Part shown: one piece after another, positions 2,002 to 29,171 of the stretch
How positions within the stretch are numbered: the stretch's first letter is position 1
How the letters are laid out: each line of letters begins with the position of its first letter
NCBI GenBank assembly: GCA_049472335.1
Contig: JBLIRO010000001.1
Location: forward strand, 87,015-151,014
Origin: a bacterium
GTDB taxonomy: Bacteria > SZUA-182 > DTGQ01 > JAFGSM01
Direction of reading: 5' to 3'
Length of the DNA: 64,000 bases
Notes under the pieces: generated by a model
Told to the model about the DNA's origin: nothing
Seen by the model: only the letters and a program-made list of their open reading frames with translations
Database searches by the model: none
Position numbers and translations under genes: made by a program

Positions 2002-2208
2002 ATGGAATCAATAGAGACAAAATTTAACAAGCTTCCTGATTATCTTAAGGAAGAGGTTGAGGATTTCATTGATTTTCTAATTATCAAGAAAAAGATTTCA
2101 AAGAAGAAAAAACTCCCAAAACTTGATTGGATAGGGGGATTAAAGGAGTATCGAAACCAATATACAGCAGTCAATTTGCAGAAAAAGGCATCAGAATGGA
2201 GAGACTGA
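2002..2208 (+). CDS. Type II antitoxin, DUF2281/VapB-like
   Basis: 68 aa with KLPDYLKEEVEDFIDFLIIKKK. The stop TGA (2206-2208) overlaps the ATG (2208-2210) of the PIN gene. AGGAGG lies upstream. Confidence 0.6.
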   Translation: MESIETKFNKLPDYLKEEVEDFIDFLIIKKKISKKKKLPKLDWIGGLKEYRNQYTAVNLQKKASEWRD

Positions 2209-2603
2209 TGTATCTAATAGATACCAATATTTTTCTGGAAGCCCTCTTAGAACAAGAAAAAACAAACATTGTTAGGTCTTTTTTTCAATCCATAGACTTA
2301 AGGGATATGCTCATAACAGATCTTTCGCTTCATTCAATAGGGATCATTTTGTTCAGATTAAATAAATTTGAGCTTTTTGATATATTACTCAATGACATTA
2401 TAATTGATGGGATAGGTATTATTTCTCTAAAACTAAGTGACTTGAAAGAATTAAAGGACATTTCTAAAGCTTTTAATTTGGATTTCGATGATGCATATCA
2501 ATATTTGGCATCTGAAAAACATGATTTGTTAATTATCAGTTTTGATAAAGATTTTGACAGAACAAAGAGAAAAAGGAAAGAACCACAAGAAATAATTTCA
2601 TGA
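2208..2603 (+). CDS. vapC: PIN-domain toxin (VapC-like)
   Basis: MYLIDTNIFLE carries the N-terminal acidic residue, and DDAYQYLASEKHDLLIISFDKDFD lies near the C-terminus. The track ORF starts earlier (2127). An overlapping ATG at 2208, or at 2196, is more plausible. Confidence 0.7.
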   Translation: MYLIDTNIFLEALLEQEKTNIVRSFFQSIDLRDMLITDLSLHSIGIILFRLNKFELFDILLNDIIIDGIGIISLKLSDLKELKDISKAFNLDFDDAYQYLASEKHDLLIISFDKDFDRTKRKRKEPQEIIS

Positions 2604-2929: not shown

Positions 2930-3212
2930 TCAACTAGTACTACCCAATTTATTTTGTTTAAAGGGAAGATTATACAATTTTACTATATTTGGCAACCCGC
3001 CCGAGGTTCTTATTTCAATCCTGTCTTCATATATAGGGATGCGTATTGGGACACTGATAGTATAATCCCTATGGGCAATTGCATTTACAATAGCTTCTCT
3101 CAGGGCGGTTTCCGGCATCTTCAATACTATTTTGTATCCAAATACCTTAATTTCATATTTTTTGGAAAGTACAATATTAAAATGGACAGAACCGATGTTA
3201 GAGCCAATTGCC
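2930..3212 (-). pseudogene. C-terminal fragment of an AlbA_2 / HATPase_c_4 (RecG-like putative DNA-binding) protein
   Basis: LREAIVNAIAHRDYTISVPIRIPIYEDRIEIRTSGGLP is the conserved core of that family. The N-terminal two thirds are absent, and the ORF runs into the start of the CHAT gene. Confidence 0.5.
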
Positions 3213-3298
3213 ATGGGAGGCAAAAAGAAAATTATAAAAAAGATATTTTTGATATTGTATGGAAAATAATCTAATATAATCCTTAAAAGGAGGGAATC

Positions 3299-6200
3299 GT
3301 GGATCAAACCATCAACCTGCTCCACTTAAGGATTAAACAAGAGGACTCTGGTGACCATGTCATCTGTCTCCGGTCGGGCAGCGAAACCTTAGCCGAATCC
3401 CCCGCTCCCCAGGGCATCCTCCATTGGTCGGATATTCCCACCCTGCATGCGATATTCGGCAGACCCGGCCAATCCGTTAAAGGGATAACTCCCCGGGAGA
3501 TATCACCCATAGGCACAAGACTCTACAATGGGCTCTTTCCGGGCCCTATCCATGAAGCATTTACAGAGGCCATCCGGAAAGCAAGATTAAGCCGATCTAT
3601 CATAGACCTTCGCTTTCAGGCGGACGCATCGCACCTCCTCTCACTTCCCATCGAGCTCATCCACCACCCTGAGGAAGGCTATCTGCTTCTTAAACCCTAT
3701 ATCTCCTTCTCCCGCCATCCCCTCCTCGATATCAAACCCGGGGACGCATCAGGTCCGCCCCTAAAAGTCCTCATGTTTGTATCAAGCCCCGAGGATGCCC
3801 CTCCTATCCTGGACTTCGAAAAAGAACAGGACAACATAATCCAGGCCCTTGATCCTTACATCAGCAAAGGGGAAACCATTGTAGACATGCCGGATGAGGG
3901 CACAATGGACACCCTTAAAGAATATTTGGACCGCGGTGGCTACCAGGTACTCCACTTCAGCGGCCACGGGAACTTTGATCCCCGAAAAAACGAGGGATGC
4001 CTGCTCTTTGAAAACCAAAAGGGACAAAAGGAGGAAATCCCGGCTCATCGGCTTGCAGACCTTCTCATCAGCTATCCCAGCCTTCGCCTTGTTTTCCTCA
4101 GCGGTTGTCAGACAGCCCACATTGACTATGACATATTTGCCGGGGTCTCCCAGCAGCTTCTCAAAAACGGTATCCCCATGGCGATAGGGATGCAGCACTC
4201 CGTCTCAGACGAAGGTGCAACCGCATTTGCCTCCTCATTCTACGGGGAGCTTCTCAAGGCCCACAGTGCAGGCTGGGCACTCGCATCAGCCCGCACAGCC
4301 CTCTGGGAGCATAACAAAAACTCCTTTGAGTGGGCAACCCCTGCACTCTATGGGGGCGGATGGATCGGGGAGGTCGTTAACCTTGCAAAAGAACCCCAGG
4401 CGCCCCTGGAGCCCAGGGGAAAACCCAGGGCCTTCTATGCAGGGGTAAGCTATCTGGAGCAGGGATTTGTCGGAAGGCGCTCAGACCTTTGCGCACTCAG
4501 GGGAAAGATCCGCGAAGGGCAGACAGGCATCGCCATCTGCGGGCTGGGCGGCATAGGGAAAAGCACCCTCGCCACCCGTCTTTTGGAAAGGCTTCACTGG
4601 GAAGAAGGCATGGACATCATGGTGTTTCAAAAAGAGGTATCCCCGGAGCAGGTGGTCTCCTCCCTGGGTGACACCCTGGGAGGGGAATGCTCCCGGATCG
4701 GTAAATCTCCTGATCTTCCCTGGGGGAAAAAGCTCACCGCCCTTCACAACACATGGCCTGAGAAAAAAATAGCCCTCCTTTTTGACAACTTCGAGGACAA
4801 CCAGCACCACGACGGCAGCATCAAAGACCAGGAGGTCCGGAAAATGCTCACCGCCCTTTCAGCCATTGACAGGAAAAGGCTCCTGCTCATAATCACCACG
4901 CGGTACTGGCCCGACATCCTTTACCGTCATAACCTGGGGGATATGGGCCTTACAGGAAGCATCAAGAAGATGTACCGCTATCCCGCGCTTCGGGAGTTGG
5001 ATCTTTCCATAAAAAAGGAAATTTACGATCGTCTGGGGGGCCAGCCCAGGTCCCTGGAGCTTCTTGCGGGCCTCCTCCGGACCATGGAGAAGACATGGGA
5101 CACGGTAAAACACAGGGTGTCAGAGGTAGAAGAAGATGCCCGACAGGACCTCATGCTGGATATTCTCTGGGAGGAGCTCAGCCATAAGGAGCGGGATCTG
5201 CTCAAAAGGATATGGGTCTACCGTCTGCCCGTGGACGAGGACGCCCTCACCCTCCAGGCTCAGGAAAGGCCTGTCGATACTCACATAGCGAGTCTGGCAG
5301 ACCGCTCCCTCATCCATGCAGGCAAGGATGAAGAAGATGTCTTTCGGTATTTCATCCACCGTCTCACTGCAGGGTATGTAAAGGACAGGGTCACGGATGA
5401 AGAGGCAAGGGATGCCCACAGGGTCGCTGCGCGCTACTATGAATACCGGCTCAGGAACCAGGAAAAAGACATAGATATTTTCCTTGAGGCCCGTTATCAC
5501 CACCTTGGTGCAGGGAACCTCCGTAGGGCGGCTGAGATCGCCTTTGCTGCTGAAGGTCCCCTGAGGATCTGGGGTCATATCGAAAGGGCACGGCAACTGA
5601 ATCAGGAGACCCTGGAGCGGGCGCCTGATGAGAGGACCCACGCCATTGCCCTGCACAATCTGGGGATCATTGAGCAAGGCCAGGGTGAGTATGAGAAGGC
5701 GCTCTCCATGTATGAGGAAGCTAGAAAGATTGCTGAGCGCATCGGCGATGTGGCTGGGGTTTCAGCGAGCTACCACAATATAGGAGCAATTTATCAGGAT
5801 AGAGGCGACTATGACAAGGCTCTTTCCATGTTTGAGGAATCTAGAAAGATAAAAGAGCGCATCGGCGATGTGGCTGGGCTCTCTAAAAGCTACCACCACA
5901 TTGGGGTGATCTATCAGGATAGAGGCGACTATGACAAGGCTCTTTCCATGTTTGAGGAATCTAGAAAGATTGCTGAGCGCATCGGCGATGTGGCTGGGGT
6001 CTCTAAAAGCTACCACCAGATTGGGAGGATCTACCAGTATCGAGGCGACTATGACAAGGCTCTTTCCATGTTTGAGGAATCTAGAAAAATAAAAGAGCGC
6101 ATCGGCGATGTGGCTGGGGTCTCTAATAGCTTCCACCAGATTGGGATAATCTACCAGGTTCGAGGCGACTATGACAAGGCTTTTTCCATGTATGAGGAAT

Positions 6201-6598
6201 CTAGAAAGATTTTTGAGCGCATCGGCGATGTGGCAGGGGTTTCTGCAAGCTACCACCAGATTGGGAGGATCTACCAGTATCGAGGCGACTATGACAAGGC
6301 CCTCTCCATGTTTGAGGAATCTAGAAAGATAAAAGAGCGCATCGGCGATGTGGCAGGTCTTGCATTTTCATATGGGCAGATGGGAGTCCTCTTTGAAGAA
6401 AAAGAAAATTATGAAGCCGCTTTGGAATATACCTTGAAGGCATTTTCCATAGTGAGCCAAATCGGGTCTTCACATATTCAGCTAGCGGTGACACAACTAA
6501 AACGCCTTCAGAAAAAAATGGGGACAAAAAGGTTTAATACGATCTGGAAAAAACTCACCGATCTGGATGACATACCTTATTTCTTGAAAAACGAATGA
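3299..6598 (+). CDS. CHAT (caspase-like) protease - STAND/NB-ARC-like P-loop NTPase - TPR repeat protein, paralog 1
   Basis: GTG start 7 nt after AAAGGAGGGA. CHAT dyad motifs are VLHFSGHG and LVFLSGCQTA. Walker A is GLGGIGKSTLA and Walker B is IALLFDNFED. Seven 40-aa TPR units of the form xSYHxIGxIYQxRGDYDKALSMFEESRKIxERIGDVAGVS follow. Confidence 0.85.
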   Translation: MDQTINLLHLRIKQEDSGDHVICLRSGSETLAESPAPQGILHWSDIPTLHAIFGRPGQSVKGITPREISPIGTRLYNGLFPGPIHEAFTEAIRKARLSRSIIDLRFQADASHLLSLPIELIHHPEEGYLLLKPYISFSRHPLLDIKPGDASGPPLKVLMFVSSPEDAPPILDFEKEQDNIIQALDPYISKGETIVDMPDEGTMDTLKEYLDRGGYQVLHFSGHGNFDPRKNEGCLLFENQKGQKEEIPAHRLADLLISYPSLRLVFLSGCQTAHIDYDIFAGVSQQLLKNGIPMAIGMQHSVSDEGATAFASSFYGELLKAHSAGWALASARTALWEHNKNSFEWATPALYGGGWIGEVVNLAKEPQAPLEPRGKPRAFYAGVSYLEQGFVGRRSDLCALRGKIREGQTGIAICGLGGIGKSTLATRLLERLHWEEGMDIMVFQKEVSPEQVVSSLGDTLGGECSRIGKSPDLPWGKKLTALHNTWPEKKIALLFDNFEDNQHHDGSIKDQEVRKMLTALSAIDRKRLLLIITTRYWPDILYRHNLGDMGLTGSIKKMYRYPALRELDLSIKKEIYDRLGGQPRSLELLAGLLRTMEKTWDTVKHRVSEVEEDARQDLMLDILWEELSHKERDLLKRIWVYRLPVDEDALTLQAQERPVDTHIASLADRSLIHAGKDEEDVFRYFIHRLTAGYVKDRVTDEEARDAHRVAARYYEYRLRNQEKDIDIFLEARYHHLGAGNLRRAAEIAFAAEGPLRIWGHIERARQLNQETLERAPDERTHAIALHNLGIIEQGQGEYEKALSMYEEARKIAERIGDVAGVSASYHNIGAIYQDRGDYDKALSMFEESRKIKERIGDVAGLSKSYHHIGVIYQDRGDYDKALSMFEESRKIAERIGDVAGVSKSYHQIGRIYQYRGDYDKALSMFEESRKIKERIGDVAGVSNSFHQIGIIYQVRGDYDKAFSMYEESRKIFERIGDVAGVSASYHQIGRIYQYRGDYDKALSMFEESRKIKERIGDVAGLAFSYGQMGVLFEEKENYEAALEYTLKAFSIVSQIGSSHIQLAVTQLKRLQKKMGTKRFNTIWKKLTDLDDIPYFLKNE
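5642..6480 (+). repeat. Coding tandem repeat, 120-bp period, 7 units (six near-identical)
   Basis: Blocks beginning at 5701, 5821, 5941, 6061, 6181 and 6301 are almost identical in register (…ccatgtttgaggaatctagaaagat…gagcgcatcggcgatgtggc…). Confidence 0.9.
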
Positions 6599-6671
6599 AT
6601 CCTTTTCAAGGATGACTGAATATTAAAAAAGCAAAAATATACAAACAATATGAATAAAGGAGACAAAGAAG

Positions 6672-7097
6672 ATGGAAAAGACATCCCCGCTGATGAAGAT
6701 AAATTGCCCTAACCCGGAATGCGGCCAGGGTTTCCATATCCGACTTGGGATCACTAAAGAAGAACAAAAGGCATATGCAGATGCCAATGATGGGGACGAA
6801 CTGAATGAATCCCGGGTGTGTCCTTTCTGTGAAGCTCTGGTTATCGTAAGATACAGGAAGGAGGGGCCAAAGAAAAAAAAGGAGCGTGAGCGGTCAAAGG
6901 CCTTTGGAGAAGAACTATACACATTACAGGGAAATCCATCGATCAGTGCAATATCTCTCTGGCGCTGCCCCGAATGTGATTATAAAGAGGAAGTCATCCA
7001 CTATTCGGCCCTCAATCCTCCCCAGTGTCCCACCCATAACTGCAAACTTGAACTCGTCCGGGAACCCCTGGAATCAGGGAAAGGGGTCCCGGAATGA
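6672..7097 (+). CDS. Small double zinc-ribbon protein
   Basis: 141 aa with CPNPEC…CPFC and CPEC…CPTHNC pairs separated by a Lys/Glu-rich linker. AGGAG lies upstream. The stop overlaps the next start (ATGA at 7094-7097). Confidence 0.6.
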   Translation: MEKTSPLMKINCPNPECGQGFHIRLGITKEEQKAYADANDGDELNESRVCPFCEALVIVRYRKEGPKKKKERERSKAFGEELYTLQGNPSISAISLWRCPECDYKEEVIHYSALNPPQCPTHNCKLELVREPLESGKGVPE

Positions 7098-8071
7098 TTA
7101 TTGACGATATATCCAAAGAGGTTTTTGGCAAGCTCGGCTCCGGCTGGATTGTATCATGCCTCATCCCGTCTGCCATCCTCTTTGCCGTCATCGGAATAGC
7201 GCTTTTCATCGAGCCTCCTCATGAAATGATCAGGCAGCATCAAGCCTTACAAAGGCTTTGCACTTCCATCCCAAAAACATGGTGGCCTGGCGTTATTATC
7301 CTGCTTATCATCTTTACAGGCCTTTGCCTCAAATTCTGCACCCCATATATCATCCGATTCTATGAAGGCTATGGCCCATTCTCCCTTTTTCGTCCCCTGG
7401 AGCAAAGACGCTTCAGGAATATCGAAAAAAGGCTCAAAGCGTTTATGAAAGAGGTAAAGAAAACCCCGCGAACCAACACCAATACATCTGAATTTCAACA
7501 GTTAGAACAAAAAGCACACGCCCTGGAATATCATCTTCGAAGCAGCTTCCCCCCGCCTGAATACGTCATGCCCACTGCCCTGGGGAACATCATCCGCGCA
7601 GCAGAAATCCATGGTCTTGTGCATTATGGTATAGACGCAATAATTCTCTGGCCCAGGCTGCTTCCTTTTGTCCCCGAAAAAATAACAAAAGCCCTGGGAG
7701 AGGCGTATAATTCCATGGTCCTTTGCCTGAATACGAGCATTATATTTTATACCCTCTCGCTCTTCTGGCTTATCTATTTTGGTCGTTTAAAAAACATCAC
7801 AACGCTCATATTCCTTCCTGTCCCGATCCTCTTCCTTCTCGGCTGCCTCTCCTACAAAGCCTCACTCACCTCAGGCAGGGATTTTGGACACCAGCTTTGT
7901 GCTGCGGTTGATCTGTCCAGATGGAAATTGCTCAAAGAGCTCCGCTACCCTTATCCCAAAGACCACAATGAGGAGGTGCAGCTCTGGCAGGAGATCAGCA
8001 AATTCCTTTACGGAGGCCCTCCGGTCCAAAGGAATTATAAATATGAACATAAAGACCTTAAAGATTCCTAA
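7094..8071 (+). CDS. Membrane protein of unknown function (2 N-terminal + 2 C-terminal hydrophobic helices)
   Basis: 325 aa. Hydrophobic segments are WIVSCLIPSAILFAVIGIALFI, WWPGVIILLIIFTGLCL, MVLCLNTSIIFYTLSLFWLIYF and LIFLPVPILFLLGCL, with a soluble helical middle part. The start is translationally coupled to the Zn-ribbon gene. Confidence 0.6.
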   Translation: MIIDDISKEVFGKLGSGWIVSCLIPSAILFAVIGIALFIEPPHEMIRQHQALQRLCTSIPKTWWPGVIILLIIFTGLCLKFCTPYIIRFYEGYGPFSLFRPLEQRRFRNIEKRLKAFMKEVKKTPRTNTNTSEFQQLEQKAHALEYHLRSSFPPPEYVMPTALGNIIRAAEIHGLVHYGIDAIILWPRLLPFVPEKITKALGEAYNSMVLCLNTSIIFYTLSLFWLIYFGRLKNITTLIFLPVPILFLLGCLSYKASLTSGRDFGHQLCAAVDLSRWKLLKELRYPYPKDHNEEVQLWQEISKFLYGGPPVQRNYKYEHKDLKDS

Positions 8072-8105
8072 CTTAACAGGATCAACCAAATAACAGGGGC
8101 ATTCA

Positions 8106-11100
8106 ATGACAATTAAGGCAAAAGAAATCCGGTTGACTATCGATCAGCATAAAAACATGATCCGTCTTCAGGACAGAGGCATAACCCTGGCGGAATCCCC
8201 CTTAAACCATGAGATCCTTACTTGGAAAGACATGCCAACCCTCCAGGCACTGTTTCGTGGTCCGGGGCAGACTATAAAAAGGATTTCACCCGAAGACCTG
8301 TCCGCACTGGGCACAAGGCTCTATCAAGGATTCTTTCCCGGGGAAATCCATGAAGCATTTACTGAAATCCTCAGGAAGGCAAACCAGAGCCGGACCAGGA
8401 TAGACCTGCATCTTGAAACGGACTCATCGCACCTCATCTCCCTTCCCCTCGAGCTCATCCACCACCCTGAGGAAGGATACCTTCTCCTGAATGACTGTTT
8501 CTCATTCTCACGTCATCCCCTCCTCGGTATGGAACCTGGGGATGCATCAGGACCGCCCCTTAAGATCCTCATGTTTGTCTCAAGCCCTGCGGATGCACCC
8601 CCTATCCTTGACTTTGAAAAAGAGCAGGATAACATCATCTGGGCACTTGATCCTTATATCAGCAAAGGGGAAGCCATTGTCGACATGCCGGATGAGGGCA
8701 CAATCGACACCCTTAAGGAATACCTGGACCGGGGAGGTTACCAGGTCCTCCACTTCAGCGGTCACGGCCTATTTGATCACAAAGAGGGGGAAGGCTGTCT
8801 CCTCTTCGAGAATGACCGGGGACAAAAAGAGGAAATCCCTGCAAAACATCTCGCAAAGGTATTGAAAAACTATCCCAGCCTTCGCCTTGTTTTCCTCAGC
8901 GGTTGTCAGACAGCACGCATTGACTATGACATATTTGCCGGGGTCTCCCAGCAGCTTCTAAAAAACGGCATCCCCATGGCGATAGGGATGCAGCATTCAG
9001 TCTCGGACGAAGGTGCGACCGCATTTGCCTCCTCCTTTTATGGGGAGCTCCTCAAGGCCCACAGTGCAGGCTGGGCACTCGCATCCGCCCGCACAGCCCT
9101 CTGGGAGCGCAACAAAAGCTCCTTTGAGTGGGCAACCCCCGCACTCTATGGAGGCGGATGGATCGGTGAGGTCGTTGACCTTGCAAAAGAACCCCAGGCG
9201 CCCCTGGAGCCCAGGGGAAAACCCAGGGCCTTCTATGCAGGGGTAAGCTATCTGGAGCAGGGATTTGTCGGAAGGCGCCTGGACCTTCGCACACTCAGGG
9301 GAAAGATCCGCGAAGGACAGACAGGCATCGCCATCTGCGGGCTGGGCGGCATAGGAAAGAGCACCCTCGCCACCCGCCTTTTAGAAAGGCTTCACTGGGA
9401 AGAAGGAATGGATATCCTGGTGTTTCAAAAAGAGGTATCCCCGGAGCAGGTGGTCTCCTCCCTGGGTGATACCCTGGGAGGGGAATGCTCCCGGATCGGT
9501 AAATCCCCTGATCTTCCCTGGGGGAAAAAGCTCACCGTCCTTTACAACACATGGCCTCAGAAAAAAATAGCCCTCCTTTTTGACAACTTCGAGGACAACC
9601 AGCACCACAACGGAAGCATCAAAGATCCGGAAGTCCGGAAAATGCTCACCGCCCTTGCAGCCATTGACAGAAAGAAGCTCCTGCTCATTCTCACCACACG
9701 GTACGGACCCGATACTCTCTACCGTCACAACCTGGGGGATATGGGCTTTACAGGAAGCATCAAGAAGATGTACCGCTATCCCGTACTTCGGGAGTTGGAT
9801 CTTTCAACAAAGAAGGAAATATACAATCGTCTCGGGGGCCAGCCCAGGTCCCTGGAGCTTCTTGCGGGTCTTCTCCGGACCACGGAAAAGACATGGGACG
9901 CGGTAAAACACAGGGTATCACAGGCAGAAGAAGAGGCCCGCCAGGACCTCATGCTGGATATTCTCTGGGAGGAGCTCAGCCATAAAGAGCGGGAGTTGCT
10001 CAAAAGGATATGGGTCTACCGTCTGCCCGTAGACGAGGACGCCCTCACCCTCCAGGCACAGGAAAGGTCTGTTGACAATCACATAGCGAGTCTGGCAGAC
10101 CGCTCCCTCATCCATACACGCAAGGATGAAGAAGATGTCCTTCGGTATTTTATCCACCGTCTCACTGCAGGGTACGTAAAGGACAGGGTCACGGATGAAG
10201 AGACAAGGGATGCCCACAGGATCGCTGCGCACTACTATGAATACCGGATCAGGAACCAGGAAAAAGACATAGAGATTCTTCTTGAGGCCCGCTATCACCA
10301 CCTTGGTGCAGGGAACCTCGAAAGGGCGGCCGAGATCGCCTTTTCTGCTGAATCTCCACTGAGGATCTGGGGCCATATCGAGAGGGCGCGGCAACTGAAT
10401 CAGGAGACCCTGGAGCGGGCCCCTGATGAGAGGACACGCGCCATTGCCCTGCACAATCTGGGGATCATTGGGCAAGGCCAGGGCGAGTATGACAAGGCGC
10501 TCTCCATGTATATGGAAGCAAGAAAGATTTTTGAGCGCATCGGCGATGTGGCTGGGATTTCTAATAGCTACCACAATATTGGGAATATCTACTATTTACG
10601 AGGCGAATATGACATGGCTCTTTCCATGTTTGAGGAATCTAGAAAGATTTTTGAGCGCATCGGCGATGTGGCCGGTGTTTCTGCAAGCTTACACCAGATT
10701 GGGATGATCTACCAGAAGCGAGGCGAATATGACATGGCTCTTTCCATGTTTGAGGAGGCTAGAAAGATTGCTGAGCGCATCGGCGATGTGGCTGGGGTTT
10801 CTGCAAGCTTACACCAGATTGGGATGATCTACCAGAAGCGAGGCGACTATGACATGGCTCTTTCCATGTTTGAGGAATCTAGAAAGATTTTTGAGCGCAT
10901 CGGAGATGTGGCCGGTGTTTCTGAAAGCTACCTCCAGATTGGGAGGATTTACCAGGATCGAGGAGACTATGACATGGCTCTTTCCATGTTTGAGGAATCT
11001 AGAAAGATAAAAGAGCGCATCGGCGATGTGGCTGGGGTTTCTGCAAGCTTACACCAGATTGGGAGGATCTACCAGGATCGAGGCGACTATGACATGGCTC

Positions 11101-11615
11101 TTTCCATGTTTGAGGAAGCTAGAAAGATTGATGAGCGCATCGGCGATGTGGCTGGGGTTTCTGCAAGCTTACACCAGATTGGGATGATCTGCCAGCATCG
11201 AGGAGACTATGACATGGCTCTTTCCATGTTTGAGGAATCTAGAAAGATTGATGAGCGCATCGGAGATGTGGCTGGGGTTTCTGGAAGCTTACACCAGATT
11301 GGGATTATCTACCAGGATCGAGGCGACTATGACATGGCTCTTTCCATGTTTGAGGAATCTAGAAAGATTTTTGAGCGCATCGGAGATGTAGCCAGTCTTG
11401 CATCTTCATATGCACAATCGGGCCTTCTTCATGAAGCAAAGGGTCAAAACGAGGCAGCATGTGAGTCTGTCCTGAAGGCATTTATAATTTTTAAAAGGAT
11501 CGGGTCTCCATATGCCCAACAGGCGGGAGAGATTCTTAATCGACTCCGGCAAAAAATTGGGGAGATTAAGTTTGGGACGATCTGGAAAAAATTAACCGGA
11601 GAAGAGATAAGGTAA
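8106..11615 (+). CDS. CHAT protease - STAND/NB-ARC-like NTPase - TPR repeat protein, paralog 2
   Basis: It has the same motif set as paralog 1 (VLHFSGHG, LVFLSGCQTA, GLGGIGKSTLA, LLFDNFED) and nine 40-aa TPR units. Confidence 0.85.
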   Translation: MTIKAKEIRLTIDQHKNMIRLQDRGITLAESPLNHEILTWKDMPTLQALFRGPGQTIKRISPEDLSALGTRLYQGFFPGEIHEAFTEILRKANQSRTRIDLHLETDSSHLISLPLELIHHPEEGYLLLNDCFSFSRHPLLGMEPGDASGPPLKILMFVSSPADAPPILDFEKEQDNIIWALDPYISKGEAIVDMPDEGTIDTLKEYLDRGGYQVLHFSGHGLFDHKEGEGCLLFENDRGQKEEIPAKHLAKVLKNYPSLRLVFLSGCQTARIDYDIFAGVSQQLLKNGIPMAIGMQHSVSDEGATAFASSFYGELLKAHSAGWALASARTALWERNKSSFEWATPALYGGGWIGEVVDLAKEPQAPLEPRGKPRAFYAGVSYLEQGFVGRRLDLRTLRGKIREGQTGIAICGLGGIGKSTLATRLLERLHWEEGMDILVFQKEVSPEQVVSSLGDTLGGECSRIGKSPDLPWGKKLTVLYNTWPQKKIALLFDNFEDNQHHNGSIKDPEVRKMLTALAAIDRKKLLLILTTRYGPDTLYRHNLGDMGFTGSIKKMYRYPVLRELDLSTKKEIYNRLGGQPRSLELLAGLLRTTEKTWDAVKHRVSQAEEEARQDLMLDILWEELSHKERELLKRIWVYRLPVDEDALTLQAQERSVDNHIASLADRSLIHTRKDEEDVLRYFIHRLTAGYVKDRVTDEETRDAHRIAAHYYEYRIRNQEKDIEILLEARYHHLGAGNLERAAEIAFSAESPLRIWGHIERARQLNQETLERAPDERTRAIALHNLGIIGQGQGEYDKALSMYMEARKIFERIGDVAGISNSYHNIGNIYYLRGEYDMALSMFEESRKIFERIGDVAGVSASLHQIGMIYQKRGEYDMALSMFEEARKIAERIGDVAGVSASLHQIGMIYQKRGDYDMALSMFEESRKIFERIGDVAGVSESYLQIGRIYQDRGDYDMALSMFEESRKIKERIGDVAGVSASLHQIGRIYQDRGDYDMALSMFEEARKIDERIGDVAGVSASLHQIGMICQHRGDYDMALSMFEESRKIDERIGDVAGVSGSLHQIGIIYQDRGDYDMALSMFEESRKIFERIGDVASLASSYAQSGLLHEAKGQNEAACESVLKAFIIFKRIGSPYAQQAGEILNRLRQKIGEIKFGTIWKKLTGEEIR
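10440..11520 (+). repeat. Coding tandem repeat, 120-bp period, 9 units (eight near-identical)
   Basis: Blocks at 10501, 10621, 10741, 10861, 10981, 11101, 11221 and 11341 are in register and nearly identical. Confidence 0.9.
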
Positions 11616-11631
11616 GCTAATCTGAAAAAGG

Positions 11632-13161
11632 TTACTGCCCGGCATCCTTTTTTTCGAGGTACCTGAGACAAATACAAAGCACCTGTTCCATAGCACCTCG
11701 CACATTGTAATCAGTCCAGTCAACTCCACAATGGCTCCACGGCATTCGATAAGGCTTTATGATGTTGAGGTTGTCACGATCCGTATGGTAGTAATTCAAG
11801 TAATCATAATAACGAAGTCCACACAATGAAGAGGCCTTCAGGCCTCCACGGACAAAACCAGCGGCATCTGTCCCGCCGGCAATTCCCGGCATAGGTTCCA
11901 CAACGTGATTGATCTTGAGGTCACCGGCACATTCCTTCAACAAATTATAAACTTCAGGGCTTAAAGACGTACCGGTGGTCTTTTCTTTCGAGTAAATCTT
12001 CACAAGGCCCGTGTCACTGATGGATTCCATATTAACGACTGTTGTGTCGATATCATTGTATTCCCGGGCATGCCGACGCGCAAAGGCCTCGGAACCGCGC
12101 AGGCCTACCTCCTCGCATCCAACGATTGCAATGACAACTTCGGTATTTTGAGGAACCTTCTCAGGATTGTGCTCCTTCCAATCCTTAAGGACTTTCGCTA
12201 CAGCCATGGCCGGCGCTACTGCTGACAGGTTATCCACTGCACCGGGAATAGCCTTACTGCTTGCAAAAAAGAATAGTGCAATTAAAGCAGGCAAGTTTAA
12301 GCAAAAAACCAGTACGAGCGTGCGCTTCAATGCAAAGTTACCAGGGCTGGACATATACGGGATCAGAATAAAGGTAACACTTACAGCATAGCTAAGAACC
12401 AGAAGGAGAATCATTTTGGTCTTCTTCTCCATGTTTCGGAAAATCCCGAAGAAAAGATTTGAATTGCCTTTTAACAATAGAATTAAAAGGGGCAGGAGCC
12501 ACGATAAGAGTACAACACCGATGTCTATTACAATAACCGTTTTCAGAGAAACAGCCCCGAATATACCGAACAAGAGCTGAGCTATGTAAATAACCAGGTA
12601 TTCAACAAGGGCAAGGATACCGCTCACAAGGAACAGGACATGCCCGGCTCCGGTGTAGTGAATGAGATTAAATCGGTAGGCGCTGTCAAGATGACCGCTG
12701 AAAATTATGCGTTTCTTGACCCTACCCTGCGGCTTGATGATTCCCACGACATTTTGGGAGGTTCTTTTTTGGTATGGCAGGAACTTTGGCGTCCACTCCT
12801 CGTATTTGAAGAACTGTTTGTAGAATAAAAGAAAAGCAAAAAGAATCAATCCAATGCAGACCAGAGAAAACACAACCGGCTGTACCTGTATCAAGAAGAA
12901 GAACAGAGCACAACTGATAATGATCAATCCTACAACTAACCTGATCCAGCCAAGAAAGGCTTTGGGATAACAGGTAAACTCTTCAATTTGGACTTCGTCG
13001 CAATGCTTTCCAAGTTCATCTTCAACGAGCATGGCCGCTTTTCTTTCAGCTTCCGAGCAGGGAGCGCGCGAACCAACCCCGGTAAGGATTCGCTCGATAA
13101 TCCCATACATATAATCCGAATTCTCGTCGGAATCGATCTGATATTTAGTCTTTTCATCCAT
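11632..13161 (-). CDS. M28-family metallopeptidase with an inserted multi-TM region
   Basis: IFSGHLDSAYRFN, IVGCEEVGLRGSEAF, GGTDAAGF and YHTDRDN motifs are present, with several long hydrophobic stretches in the middle. Confidence 0.7.
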   Translation of the reverse strand: MDEKTKYQIDSDENSDYMYGIIERILTGVGSRAPCSEAERKAAMLVEDELGKHCDEVQIEEFTCYPKAFLGWIRLVVGLIIISCALFFFLIQVQPVVFSLVCIGLILFAFLLFYKQFFKYEEWTPKFLPYQKRTSQNVVGIIKPQGRVKKRIIFSGHLDSAYRFNLIHYTGAGHVLFLVSGILALVEYLVIYIAQLLFGIFGAVSLKTVIVIDIGVVLLSWLLPLLILLLKGNSNLFFGIFRNMEKKTKMILLLVLSYAVSVTFILIPYMSSPGNFALKRTLVLVFCLNLPALIALFFFASSKAIPGAVDNLSAVAPAMAVAKVLKDWKEHNPEKVPQNTEVVIAIVGCEEVGLRGSEAFARRHAREYNDIDTTVVNMESISDTGLVKIYSKEKTTGTSLSPEVYNLLKECAGDLKINHVVEPMPGIAGGTDAAGFVRGGLKASSLCGLRYYDYLNYYHTDRDNLNIIKPYRMPWSHCGVDWTDYNVRGAMEQVLCICLRYLEKKDAGQ

Positions 13162-13200: not shown

Positions 13201-14283
13201 TCAATCCGTATTTTCATCAGTACCTGAGGCTGTCTCATTCGCATCCAGGTCGCAGGAAAATTTAACCACTAACGGATAGTGATCGGATAGATCCATCAAA
13301 CCGCGTTCGCTTTCATACTTCCAGTCATGAATCACGTAAGCGTCCCTGGGAAGCAATTTCAGCCCTGTGCCTGATTTCTTCACATAGACGAAGTCTATGC
13401 GATCAAAATTGCCCTCTCCTCTATCGTTTGGATCCGCCTTTGGGGAAAAAATCCGATTCAGCCTGTTCTCTTGCAGGTCAATGGTTTCCTCCCCATTCAC
13501 ATGGTTCTTATGTACCTCCCGAAAAGCGTCTGTTGCCCCTGTGTGATTGAAGATATTGTTCATGGCATCGTAGTTGCTTTTATGTACATTAAAGTCACCC
13601 ATTACAATTGCAGGGCCGCCTTCAGCCTCGATCTCTTCTGCAATCTGCCGGATGTTTGGTTGTCCGGCACCTCCTGTGTCCGTACCGGCATGGCTGACGC
13701 CAACTCTAAACATACAGGAGGAAGCAGGGCAGTCCTCAACTGTGGCCATTATAATCCCCTTCTTGGACCAGGCATCATCACCGTGGAGGTCCCTGAACTT
13801 TGTAAACTTCATATTCGCCAGTCGCCATTTGCTAAGGAGAACCAAACCACAAGTGCTTCTCAGATCAAACCAATTCTCATGCGGATAATAGTGAAACGGG
13901 TATATGCCCTTCAATTCCCTGGCAAACCATTTCTTCCTGGCATAGGCCCAGACTTCCTCCAATGCAACGATGTCCGCACCGCACTCTTTGATCCTGGAGA
14001 CAATGTGCCTTGAACGAATATTATCATCAAAGACCAGAGGATTCCTGCCGCGATCGAAAAGACGCAAAAAATTATCGACGAATTCGACTATCGAACCCTT
14101 AAACAGATGGGTGTTGTAAGTCAACACAGTAATATCGAGGTTTTCTTTCCTCAACTTTACGGCTGCCTCTTTAACAAAATGTTCACTATAGAGACTGATA
14201 TTATTGAAGTAAAAGAACGTTGTATTTCTTGTAAGGCAGTATAAACCAGAGCGGGAGATTAAGTCAATAGGGATATTTGACAA
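13201..14283 (-). CDS. Endonuclease/exonuclease/phosphatase (EEP) family protein
   Basis: VLTYNTHLF, ADIVALEEVW, VMGDFNV and LSDHYPLVVKF motifs are present. The apparent start is TTG. Confidence 0.7.
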   Translation of the reverse strand: MSNIPIDLISRSGLYCLTRNTTFFYFNNISLYSEHFVKEAAVKLRKENLDITVLTYNTHLFKGSIVEFVDNFLRLFDRGRNPLVFDDNIRSRHIVSRIKECGADIVALEEVWAYARKKWFARELKGIYPFHYYPHENWFDLRSTCGLVLLSKWRLANMKFTKFRDLHGDDAWSKKGIIMATVEDCPASSCMFRVGVSHAGTDTGGAGQPNIRQIAEEIEAEGGPAIVMGDFNVHKSNYDAMNNIFNHTGATDAFREVHKNHVNGEETIDLQENRLNRIFSPKADPNDRGEGNFDRIDFVYVKKSGTGLKLLPRDAYVIHDWKYESERGLMDLSDHYPLVVKFSCDLDANETASGTDENTD

Positions 14284-14419
14284 AAAAATCCTGTCCTTCG
14301 CAAAAAAGAGCTAACCAAATAAGATTGGTTAGCTCTTGACGTAAGGTGCTATTTAAAAATGGTTAAATGAAATCAGTGTTAATCCCACCCCCCCCAAATA
14401 CTCCTGACATTCCACTTAA

Positions 14420-14929
14420 TCAGAGGCCATAACCATAACTATAATTATAACCACCATAATATCCATAGGGATTAGACCAAGTGTTTATTGTTGAGCCCAA
14501 AGATCCAAGGCCGTAAAGGCCGTATGGATAAGGATACGGATATGTTCTGGTCTGCCTGTAGCCCACAATCCCATATACAGGCTCATCTTCTATACCATAA
14601 ACGTCCATATAGGTAAGGCTATGGCCTGGCATTAAATCTTGAAGTAATTTCAATGTAGACTTCCCTGGTGGTTCCCTCCAACCCCATATCGGCGTTCTGC
14701 TATATCCAAATGGATAGCCTTGATACATTGAAGAATAAGAATATGGTTGAATTGGATAATAATTTTGTTCAGAAAACAATGTATACCCAGTATTCCATTG
14801 TCCCAAACCAGTCATATTTGGCAGTGTCACTGTCCCATAAGTTTGACAATAACAGACACCTGCATAAATTGAAAAACAAACAGCCAGAAATATTACTAAT
14901 ATACATAATTTCCAATTTCTTGATTTCAT
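14420..14929 (-). CDS. Secreted Tyr/Gly/Pro-rich low-complexity protein
   Basis: Signal-like N-terminus MKSRNWKLCILVIFLAVCFSIYA with AAGGAG upstream. The C-terminus reads YPYPYPYGLYGLGSLG…NPYGYYGGYNYSYGYGL. Confidence 0.65.
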   Translation of the reverse strand: MKSRNWKLCILVIFLAVCFSIYAGVCYCQTYGTVTLPNMTGLGQWNTGYTLFSEQNYYPIQPYSYSSMYQGYPFGYSRTPIWGWREPPGKSTLKLLQDLMPGHSLTYMDVYGIEDEPVYGIVGYRQTRTYPYPYPYGLYGLGSLGSTINTWSNPYGYYGGYNYSYGYGL

Positions 14930-15244
14930 ATCTTTTCTCCTTATATTAATTAAGGATTTTTAAAAGACCTGACAAGACACTTCTTGTTTTATTGGCAGTC
15001 ACCTCCTTTATCTTTTGGTTTTTTTGAGGAGAAATTACCCGGTTTCTGCAGAATAAGTGCGTCAGGATTTTGCTTAGGCCTAAAGCAAATCTCTCTGGAA
15101 GATGAAAAAGAACTTCAAATGGATTTAGAATTTGTCTTATATTTTAATAGACGCAAAGAGGATTCATTTTCCCCTTGATTTTTTAAGCTATTATAGCAAT
15201 AGAATGATTATCAGATTAGATTTAAATCAATGGATTGAGGGACC

Positions 15245-16342
15245 TCAGTTTGGGCCGTGAATGTCTTTGTCCCTTTTCTTGGGGAATTCCATGGTCAGGG
15301 ATGAATGCATCACCTCTGTGTTCCCCAATGCATGTTTTTTAAATGTCATTGTAGGATTAAACATCAAAATATTTGCTTTTCTGCCATTCTTTTCATTTGA
15401 AATAAACAGATCACCTTCAGGACTAAAACAAATCCCTTCGGGTTGTTTGAATATCTTTTTGTTTAAACCCTTAGCTGTAAGAATATCTCCTTTTTGATTC
15501 AGGACAATGAGCATTCTGTCGGCCGAAGAAATGATGTATATATTTTTAGTCTTCGGATGAATGGCAATGCCAGAAGGCCGGAAATTGATATCGCCTTTAC
15601 TTAAATCGAATATCTTGATATTTCCCATGAAAGATTTTTGCAATAAAGGGCACCTCCCGAAATCTCTTAAATCGTCAATGTCAATGACGCAAGCAGGCTT
15701 TTCAAAAATCTCATTCGTATATAAATCGAACCTATAAACGGCCCTTTTCCCTTTCAGCTCATTGCATTTCTTTTTGAGATGAGGAGAATCCTTACAGGCA
15801 ATGAGCAATGTATTGGATTCTTCATCAAATGCCAATCCTTCAGCATCATTTTCTTTAGAAAGTAATGTATTATATTTTTTTACCTTTGGGAGATGTGAAT
15901 CAAAGTTCTTTACCTTGAATATGTTTCCATTGCTCTGTAAAACGTAAGCATTTTTATTAACGATCACAATATCTTCGTAATCTCTTCCCTCACCGAATTT
16001 TAATTTTTCTGTGACCTTTCCTTTCTCAAGATCAACCACATACATCATTCCTTTTTCATCCTGGATACATACCAGTTTGTTTTGTTCGAGATAGGACAAA
16101 CCGGATATTTCGTCCAAACAGTGAGGCAGTTTCAATTTCTTTGATGGATAGGATAATTGGTAAGGGAAGATGTAATTATCGAATCCTTTATAACCTCGTT
16201 CCCCAGTTTGATAATCTTTATTCTGGAAAACGCTCATATTCTTTAGAGTGAAAGGTATAAGAAGCAGCCCTATAAAGAATATCACAAGAAAAACATCTTT
16301 TCTTTTCAATATGTTACTCTTCAATATATTCATCATATTCAT
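15245..16342 (-). CDS. SdiA-regulated/YjiK-like beta-propeller protein
   Basis: N-terminal TM/signal segment. Repeated blades carry LDEISGLSY, DAEGLAFDE, PSGIAIHPKTKNIYIIS and PEGICFSPEGDLFISNE. Confidence 0.6.
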   Translation of the reverse strand: MNMMNILKSNILKRKDVFLVIFFIGLLLIPFTLKNMSVFQNKDYQTGERGYKGFDNYIFPYQLSYPSKKLKLPHCLDEISGLSYLEQNKLVCIQDEKGMMYVVDLEKGKVTEKLKFGEGRDYEDIVIVNKNAYVLQSNGNIFKVKNFDSHLPKVKKYNTLLSKENDAEGLAFDEESNTLLIACKDSPHLKKKCNELKGKRAVYRFDLYTNEIFEKPACVIDIDDLRDFGRCPLLQKSFMGNIKIFDLSKGDINFRPSGIAIHPKTKNIYIISSADRMLIVLNQKGDILTAKGLNKKIFKQPEGICFSPEGDLFISNEKNGRKANILMFNPTMTFKKHALGNTEVMHSSLTMEFPKKRDKDIHGPN

Positions 16343-17108
16343 CTTATTTAAACCTCAAGGACCTATTGATATTTAAAGATATATAGTCATCTTTCCAGGG
16401 TACTACTATGGCCCTTTTACTTGAATAGTAAAAAACTACCAGAGCAGATTACATAAAATTTACTAAAAGATTCAAATAAATGTATCAGAAATAATAATCT
16501 GTTATAAATTTATTTAAAATATAAAAAAAATAAAAGGATAAAGTTGCAAAATATATAAAACAGAAGAAATATATCTTGTTAATATATAATTAATAATTGT
16601 AAAACGGATATTTAAAATATTATCTATTTTTAATAAACAAACTATTTTTGTAAAAGCAAAAATTATACCAATTATTAATAATTGTATAAAAGTTATTTAA
16701 ACTCATCTATTAATAATAATAAAAGAATTTAAAGGGCAAATTTAAAACATCTAACAAGTCGCATAATTGCAAATAAAATAAAAAAATAAGCCGCAAAAAA
16801 GCGACTTTAAAAACCAAGAACAATTTTTATAAATAGAAAAGTCCGCGGGGAAGAGGATTTTTTATTTTTTGAGGTTACATAGTATTAGACCAAGTGATTA
16901 TATCTTTCGGTAGAGAGTAGCCTTATGAATACCTAAATGATTGGTTGTACTATCTCCATTAGACAAAGGCAGTTTTTGAAATTTTATAGAAAAGATTTGG
17001 AGTATCCTGCTCAGTGCAAAACCATTAGATCTTAGTAAGAATATAAAAAAATATTCGTCCTGTGCTTTAGAAATAATTTATCCGGCTCTCAGAGAGGGGG
17101 AATTAAAA
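16343..17108. promoter_or_regulatory. Very AT-rich 766-bp intergenic region between divergent genes, with internal direct repeats
   Basis: No ORF of 60 aa or more. An imperfect direct repeat of about 46 bp (ATTAATAATTGTA…ATCTATT…TAATAA) occurs at about 16589-16636 and 16674-16719. Confidence 0.5.
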
Positions 17109-19625: not shown

Positions 19626-19657
19626 TTTATCCCTTTTTCAGCAGGTGGTGATATACT

Positions 19658-20161
19658 ATTAAACAAAAGGTCCTTCTTACCGGTCCGCCTCGATGCGGCA
19701 AATCAACCCTCATCCGGAAAATTATCCAAAGAATAGGGAAACCTATGACCGGTTTTTTCACCTCCGAGATAAGAGAAAAGGGACAGAGGGTGGGATTTTC
19801 CATAGAAACACTCCATGGGAAAAAAGGCATCCTTGCACATATCAACAATAAAGGCCCGATTAAAGTAGGAAGATATGGGGTAAATATTGAAGATATCAAT
19901 AGGATTGCCGTACCTTCCATGGTGTGTTCAAGGCCTTACGAGATTGTTGTGATCGACGAGATAGGAAAAATGGAATGTCTGTCCCGGCTCTTTAAAAAAA
20001 CGCTTCTGGATGTCCTTGACTCAGACAATCCGGTTATCGGTTCTATTGCCCTTAAAGGCGGTCCTTTCATTCAGAAGATAAAGGAAAGGACCGACGTAGA
20101 GCTAATCCAGGTATCCGAAAAAAACAGAAACACACTGCCTGATCTGTTTTTATCAGAGTAA
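19658..20161 (+). CDS. THEP1-type nucleoside-triphosphatase (COG1618-like), apparent ATT start
   Basis: The first ATG (19745) lies after the P-loop. The frame is open from 19652 and encodes (I)KQKVLLTGPPRCGKSTLIRKIIQRIGKP upstream of it, then VVIDEIGKME (Walker B). AGGTGGTG lies 7 nt before ATT 19658. Confidence 0.6.
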   Translation: MKQKVLLTGPPRCGKSTLIRKIIQRIGKPMTGFFTSEIREKGQRVGFSIETLHGKKGILAHINNKGPIKVGRYGVNIEDINRIAVPSMVCSRPYEIVVIDEIGKMECLSRLFKKTLLDVLDSDNPVIGSIALKGGPFIQKIKERTDVELIQVSEKNRNTLPDLFLSE

Positions 20162-20258
20162 ATTAAGGAATTGGAATTAAGGAATTTACTTAATTAAGGG
20201 GACACAATACTTTACTTAATTAAGGGGACATTAATTAAGGGGACACAATACTTAATTG
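20161..20258. repeat. Cluster of short direct repeats (AATTAAGGAAT x2, TTAATTAAGGGGACA x3)
   Basis: TTAATTAAGGGGACA occurs at 20190-20204, 20216-20230 and 20231-20245. The cluster lies directly after the NTPase stop, at the left edge of the AT-rich block. Confidence 0.7.
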
Positions 20259-20658
20259 CTCCTTTATAAACTGGATATTTGAGAGCTAAATGCTTAAATA
20301 ATGCCCCCTAAAAGCTTCGAGCCATATTATTCAGATTATTTTTTTCTAGATTATCTGTTTTTATAATCTGCTGAAAATTTTTTTGGGAAGACGAAGGAAT
20401 AGTATTCTTAAAAATAAAAGATTGACTTTCTTAAGGCACTCGATCATTTAATATGTTTTACCCTTAAACACTCTTAAATACAATTAGTTAAATATGATGC
20501 AACTTTTGATTTAATATAACCTGTATACTATCATCTTACTTAGTTAATGGGTGGTAAATATTACTAATACCCAGGTGAAAAATACCAAACTTTTTGTTAA
20601 TAATCAGATGAGAGTCTATTATTTTCATGATAGTTAAAGACATCGAATGACTAAAATA

Positions 20659-21324
20659 TCATTTCAATTTCAAGAAAAGAAAGGCAGCCCGGTAAATAGC
20701 ATTTTCCATAGAAATACTAAGTCTTCGATAACGGAGCAGGAATAGAATTGAAGTTGTAAGTGATATGATAACGAATATGCTATTGTGATACTGTTTTTGA
20801 TAAGAAAAAAATATGGACAAAACCAGACAGGCAACCACCATATTCCTGGCGAAAAGGGACATGGTATAGAGACGGTTTATATATTCTTTTCCAGATGGAC
20901 TATGATCCAATACTAATTGGCGAGACAACTCCAGTATTTGGCGATCCTCCCCAGTATAATCTAATACATCTTGAAAATAAACCTTAATTCCCTCTTTCAA
21001 AGATTTGATTTCGTCTGAAAATCTCTTGTGATTTTTATGCCCTCTTTTAGGCTTATTACTAATGACTGTTTCATTGAAAAGCCCTTGCTTTTGCTTACCT
21101 CTAAAGCAATCAAAACCCTTTGGAATTAAGGATGAAACCAACGTTAATAAATGTCCGATTAGATAGCTTAGAATAAAGATCATGATATACTTATCAATCT
21201 CGGACATCTGCCATTTTGTAATGAGTGAGAAATCATTCAAGAGAAAGCACATAATAATCAAAGCACCTGGGAAAAGATAGGTGAAAAAATCAAGGAGACT
21301 TAAAGAAAAGTCAGTATTTATCAT
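20659..21324 (-). CDS. Membrane protein of unknown function (4 hydrophobic helices), last gene of the kinase operon
   Basis: 221 aa. FFTYLFPGALIIMCFLL, IMIFILSYLIGHLLTLVSSLI, MVVACLVLSIFF and IFVIISLTTSILFLL flank a basic soluble loop. The start is 11 nt after the regulator stop. Confidence 0.55.
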   Translation of the reverse strand: MINTDFSLSLLDFFTYLFPGALIIMCFLLNDFSLITKWQMSEIDKYIMIFILSYLIGHLLTLVSSLIPKGFDCFRGKQKQGLFNETVISNKPKRGHKNHKRFSDEIKSLKEGIKVYFQDVLDYTGEDRQILELSRQLVLDHSPSGKEYINRLYTMSLFARNMVVACLVLSIFFSYQKQYHNSIFVIISLTTSILFLLRYRRLSISMENAIYRAAFLFLKLK

Positions 21325-21335
21325 ATTTTCAGCCC

Positions 21336-22718: not shown

Positions 22719-22780
22719 TGTTTTGTTTTTCCTTCTTATTTCTCTTTTATACCCTTTTTAATATCTTGAAGGTATTATAA

Positions 22781-24241: not shown

Positions 24242-24246
24242 TTATT

Positions 24247-25872: not shown

Positions 25873-25875
25873 TTG

Positions 25876-28683: not shown

Positions 28684-28891
28684 TTTATTCTCCTTAAAAC
28701 AAAAAGTGTCTGCAGCTTTCATTTATATATTTTAAATTTATATTTTATCTATTGTTTATATTTTTTCAATAGCGTAAGGGAAAAACTATTTTTCTCCCTT
28801 TCTTTCTGGGAAACGGTTGGATGAAGGAGTTTTTAATGAAAAGTATACATTTCTTTAGGGTTAGTATGAAAGATGCCAAAAATAAAATCAT

Positions 28892-29119: not shown

Positions 29120-29171
29120 ATTATTTCCTCCTCTTAATTTCTCTATTAAATAATTATGATAAAAACTCTAT

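Follow-up and report, generated by a model that had tools for sequence, protein, structure and literature searches.

Prokaryotes encode caspase-headed proteins resembling the NLR (nucleotide-binding, leucine-rich repeat) proteins of immunity, and the targets that they cut are mostly unknown. As published, these proteins share one order of parts (an N-terminal caspase-superfamily protease, a P-loop NTPase of the STAND (signal transduction ATPases with numerous domains) class, and a C-terminal repeat sensor with hypervariable positions), and they have relatives, as here, among lineages that are filamentous or multicellular (Nostoc, Streptomyces and Chloroflexota). We analysed a 64,000-nucleotide stretch of a bacterial contig (JBLIRO010000001.1, positions 87,015 to 151,014; hereafter the window) in which two paralogous genes of this type bracket a pair of small genes, one for a zinc-ribbon protein and one for a membrane protein with four predicted transmembrane helices (the four-helix protein). 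The tie between the protease and the ribbon and four-helix genes, and the bracketing of that pair by two NLR-like genes, set this locus apart from the accessible portions of the published descriptions. The recurrence of this tie in other genomes is strong enough to regard protease, ribbon protein and four-helix protein as one module by gene linkage, and the locus offers genetically linked candidate partners for a caspase-type protease.

In protease-gasdermin pairs, a caspase-type protease, often a CHAT or NLR-fused one, is encoded beside a membrane-active protein. The likeness to the present locus, a caspase-type protease beside a membrane protein, is a functional analogy and lies behind the mechanism that we favour below; the four-helix protein differs in being an all-helical integral membrane protein with no Pfam gasdermin match and no match to a solved fold, and Pfam, an AlphaFold2 (AF2) model and Foldseek together revealed no gasdermin-fold protein beside the protease. 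In the type III-E CRISPR Craspase, Cas7-11 works with Csx29, a tetratricopeptide repeat (TPR)-CHAT protease that cuts the product of a neighbouring gene, Csx30, in a flexible loop (PMC10028731). A CHAT protease and a neighbouring-gene product are common to both systems, and many relatives of the present cassette encode TPR-CHAT proteins; activation here, however, would come from a STAND NTPase and not from RNA, and Cas7-11, Csx30, Csx31 and sigma factors had no match in the four proteins or in the flanking open reading frames (ORFs) that were scanned. A reading of the anti-sigma type, modelled on Csx30 and DdvA, was set aside because those four genes and flanking ORFs hold no sigma factor.

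A further precedent, for a membrane-associated caspase encoded by two genes, is the EACC1-caspase system (PMC7159879). In the part of that source available to us, a small membrane-protein gene is coupled, as here, to a gene whose product opens with a caspase-superfamily domain; variable modules come after it, STAND NTPases and repeats among them, and the products are proposed to act at the membrane. Compared with the protein outlined there, the membrane protein here has four transmembrane helices, a cytoplasmic domain of about 190 residues and a separate zinc-ribbon partner. Membership in EACC1, as that part of the source defines it, was rejected on topology, the protein here having four hydrophobic segments and 325 residues.

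Linkage of a zinc-ribbon and four-helix gene pair to caspase-type proteases

The cluster consists of four forward-strand genes: NLR-like paralogue 1 (3299-6598, 1099 residues, GTG start), the double zinc-ribbon protein (6672-7097, 141 residues), the four-helix protein (7094-8071, 325 residues) and NLR-like paralogue 2 (8106-11615, 1169 residues). ORF calls and translations agree with the initial annotation on coordinates, strand and spacing, which runs as a 73-nt gap, an ATGA overlap between the two small genes and a 34-nt gap. A strong Shine-Dalgarno sequence, AAGGAGG, precedes the GTG at 3299 and falls within the left edge (3269-3298, forward strand) of the unit that the window shares, by blastn homology, with its closest relative; AAAGGAG precedes the 141-residue gene. 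A weak promoter-like site, a consensus match only, lies at 3249-3277, just 5' of this edge. Spacing is tight, good ribosome-binding sites are present and a pattern scan found no forward-strand site resembling a terminator in the intergenic gaps. The arrangement is most simply read as an operon. The 4-nt overlap of the two small gene types is found in the window and in at least 12 other loci.

The 141-residue protein has two zinc ribbons, as first described, joined by a lysine- and glutamate-rich linker. They had been written as four CxxC pairs, a detail that did not survive, since each ribbon has one Cx4C: ribbon 1 reads Cx4C...CxxC (C12, C17, C50, C53) and ribbon 2 CxxC...Cx4C (C99, C102, C119, C124). 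The protein has a conserved C-terminal tail (residues 83-130; 6918-7061, forward strand) that contains L85-Q-G87, C99/C102, P117 and C119/C124. A MAFFT alignment of 19 tails (alignment A5), in which G87, C99 and C119 are invariant and P117 nearly so, defines a shared module (L-x-G, about 12 residues, C-x2-[C/H], then P-x-C) that, judged from the alignment, is homologous across the protease-linked loci. The N-terminal part of the small proteins varies: Chloroflexota and cyanobacteria-like loci have a pair of CBS domains there (Pfam CBS E 1e-12), the plasmids of actinomycetes and Nostoc a short helical region, certain Streptomyces almost nothing, and the window a second ribbon. A hidden Markov model (HMM) of the ribbon tail missed the plasmid-encoded small proteins, whose homology rests on alignment A5 and the shared motifs, and a regular expression for CxxC-type ribbons undercounted degenerate tails; a word-index homology search, which was not exhaustive, gave 3 matches to the ribbon protein. 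Neither the 141- nor the 325-residue protein has a match in Pfam, NCBIfam, PADLOC or PHROGs.

Hydropathy and the AF2 model both place hydrophobic segments of the 325-residue protein at about residues 17-40, 64-86, 208-228 and 238-258, in keeping with the 2+2 hydrophobic helices first read from its sequence. Prediction puts both the long loop (86-205) and the tail (259-325) in the cytoplasm, and the protein has a conserved cytoplasmic domain of about 190 residues. All strongly conserved residues fall on this predicted side of the membrane; the conserved motifs are R88-x-YEGY93 just after the second helix, P160-TALGN165, Y178-G, W186-PRL189, and D273/R276 in the tail (alignments A1 and A3). An AF2 model computed from 7 sequences was poor (pLDDT 61), and a 66-sequence alignment was used instead, giving a confident all-helical model with very long helices (pLDDT 89.9, pTM 0.85). 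Foldseek searches of this model against the PDB and BFVD returned noise only (best E 0.5, TM-score < 0.3). A likeness to MotA/ExbB/TolQ or to alpha-pore-forming toxins was weak and was dismissed as evidence.

An exhaustive HMMER profile search of 1.84 billion cluster representatives identified 6,174 family representatives at E<=1e-3 and 1,370 at E<=1e-30, next to which the 7 relatives given by a word-index search were misleading. Every member with a source name is called "hypothetical protein", nearly all are without a Pfam domain, and no homologue was found in phage genomes. The four-helix protein is a member of a large unannotated family without a solved relative.

Loci for comparison were drawn from GTDB species genomes (24) and Joint Genome Institute metagenomes (80), where alignment A1 served a search for related loci, together with contigs obtained by exact look-up. 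All were scanned with purpose-built HMMs for the ribbon tail, CHAT and the four-helix protein. Once dereplicated at 60% identity over the four-helix protein, the loci formed 56 clusters, 16 of them with a ribbon-tail gene. A CHAT gene lies directly upstream in 12 of these 16 clusters and in 1 of the other 40 (Fisher p 4e-8); with the count restricted to clusters that have 2.5 kb or more of sequence upstream, the figures are 9/13 and 1/18 (Fisher p 3e-4). The ribbon-tail gene stands immediately upstream of the four-helix gene in a large subset, often with a 4-nt overlap, and the pair recurs in Chloroflexota, Actinomycetota, Cyanobacteriota and Methanosarcinales-like contigs. The window pair has the same form, an L-x-G...C...P-x-C tail protein directly upstream of an RxYEGY/PTALGN/WPRL four-helix protein (alignments A1, A3 and A5). 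The initial annotation had staked its composite module on the small genes recurring beside CHAT genes elsewhere, and they do recur, beside CHAT or caspase genes, both in these counts and in the Methanosarcinales-like and Nostoc loci described next.

The neighbouring proteases come in several formats: TPR-CHAT proteins of 1,300-1,520 residues, X-CHAT proteins of 790-850 residues (Streptomyces and Kribbella) and CHAT-only proteins of 430 residues. TPR-CHAT partners occur in Chloroflexota and Rhodococcus. A Methanosarcinales-like contig with a thermosome gene (L043) encodes a 1,226-residue CHAT(82-360)-AAA_16-TPR protein, followed by an 82-residue CxxC...CxxC protein and then a four-helix gene; the large protein has the window architecture and is 26% identical over CHAT plus NTPase. 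On the Nostoc plasmid pC052_A, the small protein and the four-helix protein precede a 1,557-residue "caspase family protein" with an N-terminal caspase dyad, a Walker A motif at residue 451 and Apaf-1-like WD40 repeats. A Rhodococcus opacus plasmid has the small protein, the four-helix protein and then a TPR-CHAT gene, and a Streptomyces goshikiensis plasmid has the same pair, a 350-residue protein and then CHAT. The protease thus lies downstream of the pair on all three annotated plasmids, as paralogue 2 does in the window, and upstream of it in the branch loci; therefore both gene orders of the window are independently precedented.

Two of these loci carry further features. On the Nostoc sp. 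C052 plasmid (L115; pC052_A, 375149-382988), which is typed as conjugative, a TnpB gene lies immediately upstream and the caspase-NTPase-WD40 gene is followed by one for a "strawberry notch C-terminal domain" protein. In a Methanosarcinales metagenome-assembled genome (MAG; L034:9195-9542), the CHAT-STAND-TPR gene is cut to a 115-residue in-frame remnant that corresponds to residues 1-89 plus the last ~27 of the 1,226-residue protein (compared with L043:3862-7542), and the ribbon and four-helix genes downstream are intact.

These comparisons bear on the possibility that there is no functional link at all, in that the NLR-like proteins are single-gene systems and the small genes became trapped between tandem duplicates. 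Many STAND defence proteins have been described as single-gene systems, and a duplication could have carried passengers. Nevertheless, the pair stands beside caspase-type proteases in at least four phyla, in varied orders and architectures; the closest relative (L005) keeps the same four-gene layout at 79% DNA identity; and raised GC content is common to all four genes. We consider an accidental association very improbable. A full-text search of open-access papers and preprints found no description of the cassette, and PADLOC, Pfam, NCBIfam and PHROGs gave neither a match to the small genes nor one at the level of a system, consistent with the earlier failure to match the cluster to a named system. 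The ribbon-tail/four-helix cassette, its caspase-superfamily link and the presence of four-helix family genes within BREX-like (bacteriophage exclusion-like) and restriction operons appear to be undescribed.

The two CHAT-STAND-TPR proteins

The bracketing proteins belong to an already known kind. The CHAT domain (Pfam PF12770, cutoff 24) is matched at E 4e-35 and 122.1 bits in paralogue 1, where it covers residues 72-352 (3512-4354, forward strand), and at E 2e-34 and 119.6 bits in paralogue 2. A histidine inside VLHFSGHG and a cysteine inside FLSGCQT align with the dyad of the solved CHAT protein 8tl0, and the resulting pairs, His223/Cys270 in paralogue 1 and His220/Cys267 in paralogue 2, are the predicted catalytic residues, intact in both paralogues. 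The same histidine and cysteine are conserved in the L043 protein.

The P-loop module that follows is, on alignment, a real but divergent STAND NTPase. In paralogue 1, the nucleotide-binding oligomerisation module covers residues 389-720 (4463-5458, forward strand), with Walker A as GLGGIGKS (G415-S422) and Walker B as LLFD496, both read from the sequence; in paralogue 2, Pfam NB-ARC is matched at E 7e-5 and 22.6 bits, just under its cutoff of 23.5. Among solved proteins, the best relative is PH0952 (6mfv), a STAND-TPR protein to which phmmer aligns residues 389-720 across the nucleotide-binding, helical and winged-helix parts. PH0952-type proteins resemble the window proteins in having a TPR sensor after the NTPase, although the similarity is low (E 3.7e-4) and PH0952 is without a protease domain.

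The C-terminal arrays match Pfam TPR_12 at E 8e-62 in paralogue 1 and E 3e-100 in paralogue 2. The array of paralogue 1 starts at about residue 755 (5561-6526, forward strand, from Pfam TPR families and Tandem Repeats Finder (TRF)), with tandem 120-nt units at 5690-6354 (5.5 copies, 86% matches), and the units of paralogue 2 lie at 10482-11389 on the same strand (7.6 copies); these TPR-coding repeats are the only tandem arrays that TRF detected in 3000-12000, with no CRISPR array among them. The arrays amount to 6 and 8 canonical units of 40 residues together with degenerate caps, within one unit of the 7 and 9 first reported. The units are near-identical save for hypervariable positions 1, 19, 30 and 37, a pattern expected of a diversifying binding surface and one that fits a sensor array. 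The paralogues are 82% identical overall, and identity differs by region, falling from 90% in the NTPase module and 83% in CHAT to 77% in the TPRs and 47% over the first 60 residues.

The Pfam CHAT and TPR matches and the alignments to PH0952 and 8tl0 together uphold the NLR-like effector, STAND NTPase and repeat-sensor layout proposed at the outset. Against PADLOC (PADLOC-DB of 2023), only a generic TPR model (E 2e-30) and, weakly, SAVED_CHAT (E 1e-6) were matched, with no match to models of Avs, bNACHT or other named STAND defence systems. The best non-TPR match in NCBIfam is HetF, through the CHAT domain and far under the cutoff.

Possible roles of the ribbon and four-helix pair

The mechanism that we favour, tentatively and with somewhat less than an even chance of being right, is a protease-gated membrane executioner, in which the NLR-activated CHAT domain would act on the ribbon/four-helix pair and the outcome would be membrane damage. 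The conserved module has three parts: a caspase-superfamily protease, a small protein whose zinc-ribbon tail contains L-x-G, and the four-helix membrane protein. The protease here is the N-terminal domain of an NLR-like protein whose gene is duplicated, one copy on each side of the pair. Each TPR array, with its own hypervariable surface, would bind an invader-derived ligand, and binding would release the STAND NTPase for ATP-dependent oligomerisation, bringing CHAT domains together for activation by proximity. The protease would then cut the ribbon protein, the cytoplasmic domain of the four-helix protein, or both, the candidate site in the ribbon protein probably being an exposed linker around the invariant L-x-G. 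Cleavage would turn the translationally coupled complex into a membrane-damaging state that stops the infected cell, so that the signal would run from protease to membrane and two sensors would share one executioner, much as protease-gasdermin pairs are arranged.

If the link is functional, it would give caspase-type immunity in bacteria and archaea a directly testable substrate or effector; it would also provide a second, gasdermin-unrelated example of protease-to-membrane signalling, and a handle on a large "dark" membrane-protein family that is also found inside BREX-like and restriction operons.

Several observations weigh against such an executioner. About two thirds of the sampled four-helix loci contain neither a ribbon gene nor a protease gene. 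Because of this, and because some members carry or adjoin envelope domains of the SAF/RcpC type, the family has a protease-independent function, which could be structural or sensory rather than lethal. Some pairs of a CBS-ribbon and a four-helix gene follow a SpoIIE phosphatase or an AAA ATPase in place of CHAT (some of these pairs are then followed by a SAF/RcpC-like protein), and such linkage is equally compatible with a constant sensor whose outputs vary and with a constant effector. The identity of the cleavage substrate is a guess, and the phage-defence models of PADLOC recognise nothing in the cluster beyond generic TPR and CHAT similarity. Retention of the L034 pair after near-total loss of its NLR-like gene is neutral between an executioner and a sensor.

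The same observations bring forward a different direction of signalling, in which the pair would be an input or an anchor: the membrane protein would sense an envelope event (phage DNA entry, membrane stress or loss of potential) or tether the system, and the ribbon protein would relay to the protease, which would cut targets elsewhere in the cell; a nucleotide-binding CBS input would be added by the ribbon protein in further lineages. The pair stays constant as its partner changes between loci (CHAT, caspase, SpoIIE phosphatase, AAA ATPase, restriction and BREX-like enzymes), most of the four-helix family is protease-free, the CBS domains that most ribbon proteins carry point to ligand sensing, and the strongly conserved residues of the four-helix protein are all cytoplasmic, as expected for a docking surface. 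The accessible part of Kaur et al. proposes the same logic for the EACC1 transmembrane protein and its caspase (PMC7159879). We nonetheless prefer an executioner because NLR-like proteins already own a sensor (TPR) and a switch (STAND), a self-sufficient design for which a second sensor is not required; moreover, a protease without a dedicated nearby substrate is the less common case among the characterised CHAT systems considered here (PMC10028731). A sensory or anchoring role is the main rival, and we give it a somewhat lower probability than the executioner.

Away from CHAT genes, the four-helix family is found in restriction-type contexts, both as a branch with minimal 52-82-residue CxxC...CxxC proteins and as branches with no ribbon gene. 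One BREX-like operon (L121:3180-14130) has the order DUF6079/BrxC-PglY_N, four-helix gene, two small genes, N6_N4 methylase and PglZ, and a second locus (L028:1294-10372) confirms this order up to the methylase, which suggests, from gene order, that the four-helix gene may be an unrecognised component of a BREX variant. In a type I restriction locus (L118:2946-13099), genes for an HsdM-like methylase and an HsdS-like protein precede the four-helix gene, a 132-residue gene, a 277-residue gene, a 1,428-residue protein with NERD and protein-kinase domains, and a MAD7-domain protein. The trio of a four-helix gene, a gene of ~120-130 residues and one of ~250-290 residues seen there recurs in L121, L122 and L028. 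A family gene lies ahead of a PLD/SNF2 helicase in another locus, and further neighbours include DUF1156 or Eco57I-type methylases and GmrSD. An Anaerolineales MAG (L020:7005-8367 and 9231-10515) has two tandem copies of the minimal CxxC...CxxC and four-helix pair downstream of an NfeD-like membrane protease gene.

Taken across these contexts, the four-helix family may constitute a widespread and unrecognised class of immune membrane executioners, held in check by the zinc-ribbon partner, switched on in one branch of the family by caspase-type proteases, among them NLR-like ones of bacteria and archaea, and wired in other branches to BREX-like and restriction systems, and so a route from NLR-like proteins and caspases to membrane death that does not pass through gasdermins. 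We hold this broader proposal to be possible but doubtful.

SAF/RcpC or DUF11 domains are fused to some family members. Part of the family (P0021, P0022, P0030, P0039 and P0051) has SAF and RcpC/CpaB-like domains as a C-terminal extension, and a separate SAF/RcpC-like gene lies directly downstream of the four-helix gene in two loci (L041:9051-9662 and L045:6630-7271). Such extensions and neighbours hint at an envelope-facing partner. Many of the longer members (420-500 residues) have heterogeneous neighbours, among which SAF is the only recurrent domain (4/88), and the neighbours of the non-ribbon branch include housekeeping genes.

Here a non-immune role comes into consideration: regulatory proteolysis for the envelope, development or stress, in the manner of HetF, a CHAT protein that cyanobacteria use in cell division. 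The four-helix protein would then be a membrane component of housekeeping type. The HetF match, weak as it is, the fused or adjacent SAF/RcpC (CpaB-like) domains and the heterogeneous, partly housekeeping neighbours of the non-ribbon branch all point this way. Set against them are the hypervariable positions of the repeat arrays, the family members inside BREX-like and restriction operons, the plasmid-borne homologues and patchy distribution, and the setting of the cluster within the window, described below. On balance, we judge a non-immune role improbable.

The island and its surroundings

The four cluster genes have a GC content of 47-53%, against 39-40% in the flanks and 40.5% in the whole window. 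Homology to the L005 contig sets in at 3269, 30 nt ahead of the first gene; upstream of that point the two sequences are unrelated. Some 700 nt before the cluster, genes for a DUF2281 protein (2002-2208, forward strand, E 2e-12) and a PIN-domain protein (2127-2603, forward strand, E 7e-11) form, by domain content, a VapBC-like toxin-antitoxin pair. Further partial matches on the forward strand correspond to a trehalase fragment (886-1266, family positions 187-275 of 512) and to an ABC ATPase fragment, the end of ABC_tran (1348-1785). On the reverse strand, the decayed gene that had been labelled AlbA_2 stands as a remnant, although 2930-3325 gave only a weak HATPase_c_4 match. These short partial ORFs look like gene debris at an island edge.

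Toxin-antitoxin pair, gene fragments, GC contrast and unrelated upstream sequence in L005 agree with the island-like flanks noted initially, and we favour reading the region, from its composition and boundaries, as an 8.3-kb horizontally acquired island. The island composition, the difference in flanks between the two contigs that carry the cluster, and the toxin-antitoxin pair and debris adjoining it all count against regulatory proteolysis as the role of the system.

A search for tRNA and Rfam matches found none in the window. On the downstream side lies an M28 peptidase gene in converging orientation, and elsewhere the genes of the window are those of an ordinary bacterial chromosome. Sigma-54 and two-component genes among them point to a bacterial source. 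The interval 14000-32000 has 30-36% GC, which contrasts with the 47-53% of the cluster, and a strongly negative GC skew from ~22 kb; its genes, all on the reverse strand, encode a sigma-54 activator, two GAF histidine kinases and a PEP (phosphoenolpyruvate)-utilising enzyme. Further along are two large genes unrelated to the cluster, whose products are probably secreted or surface proteins: a 1,528-residue alpha-amylase with LTD and PKD domains (32733-37319, reverse strand) and a 1,548-residue VWA/TSP3-repeat protein (48708-53354, forward strand).

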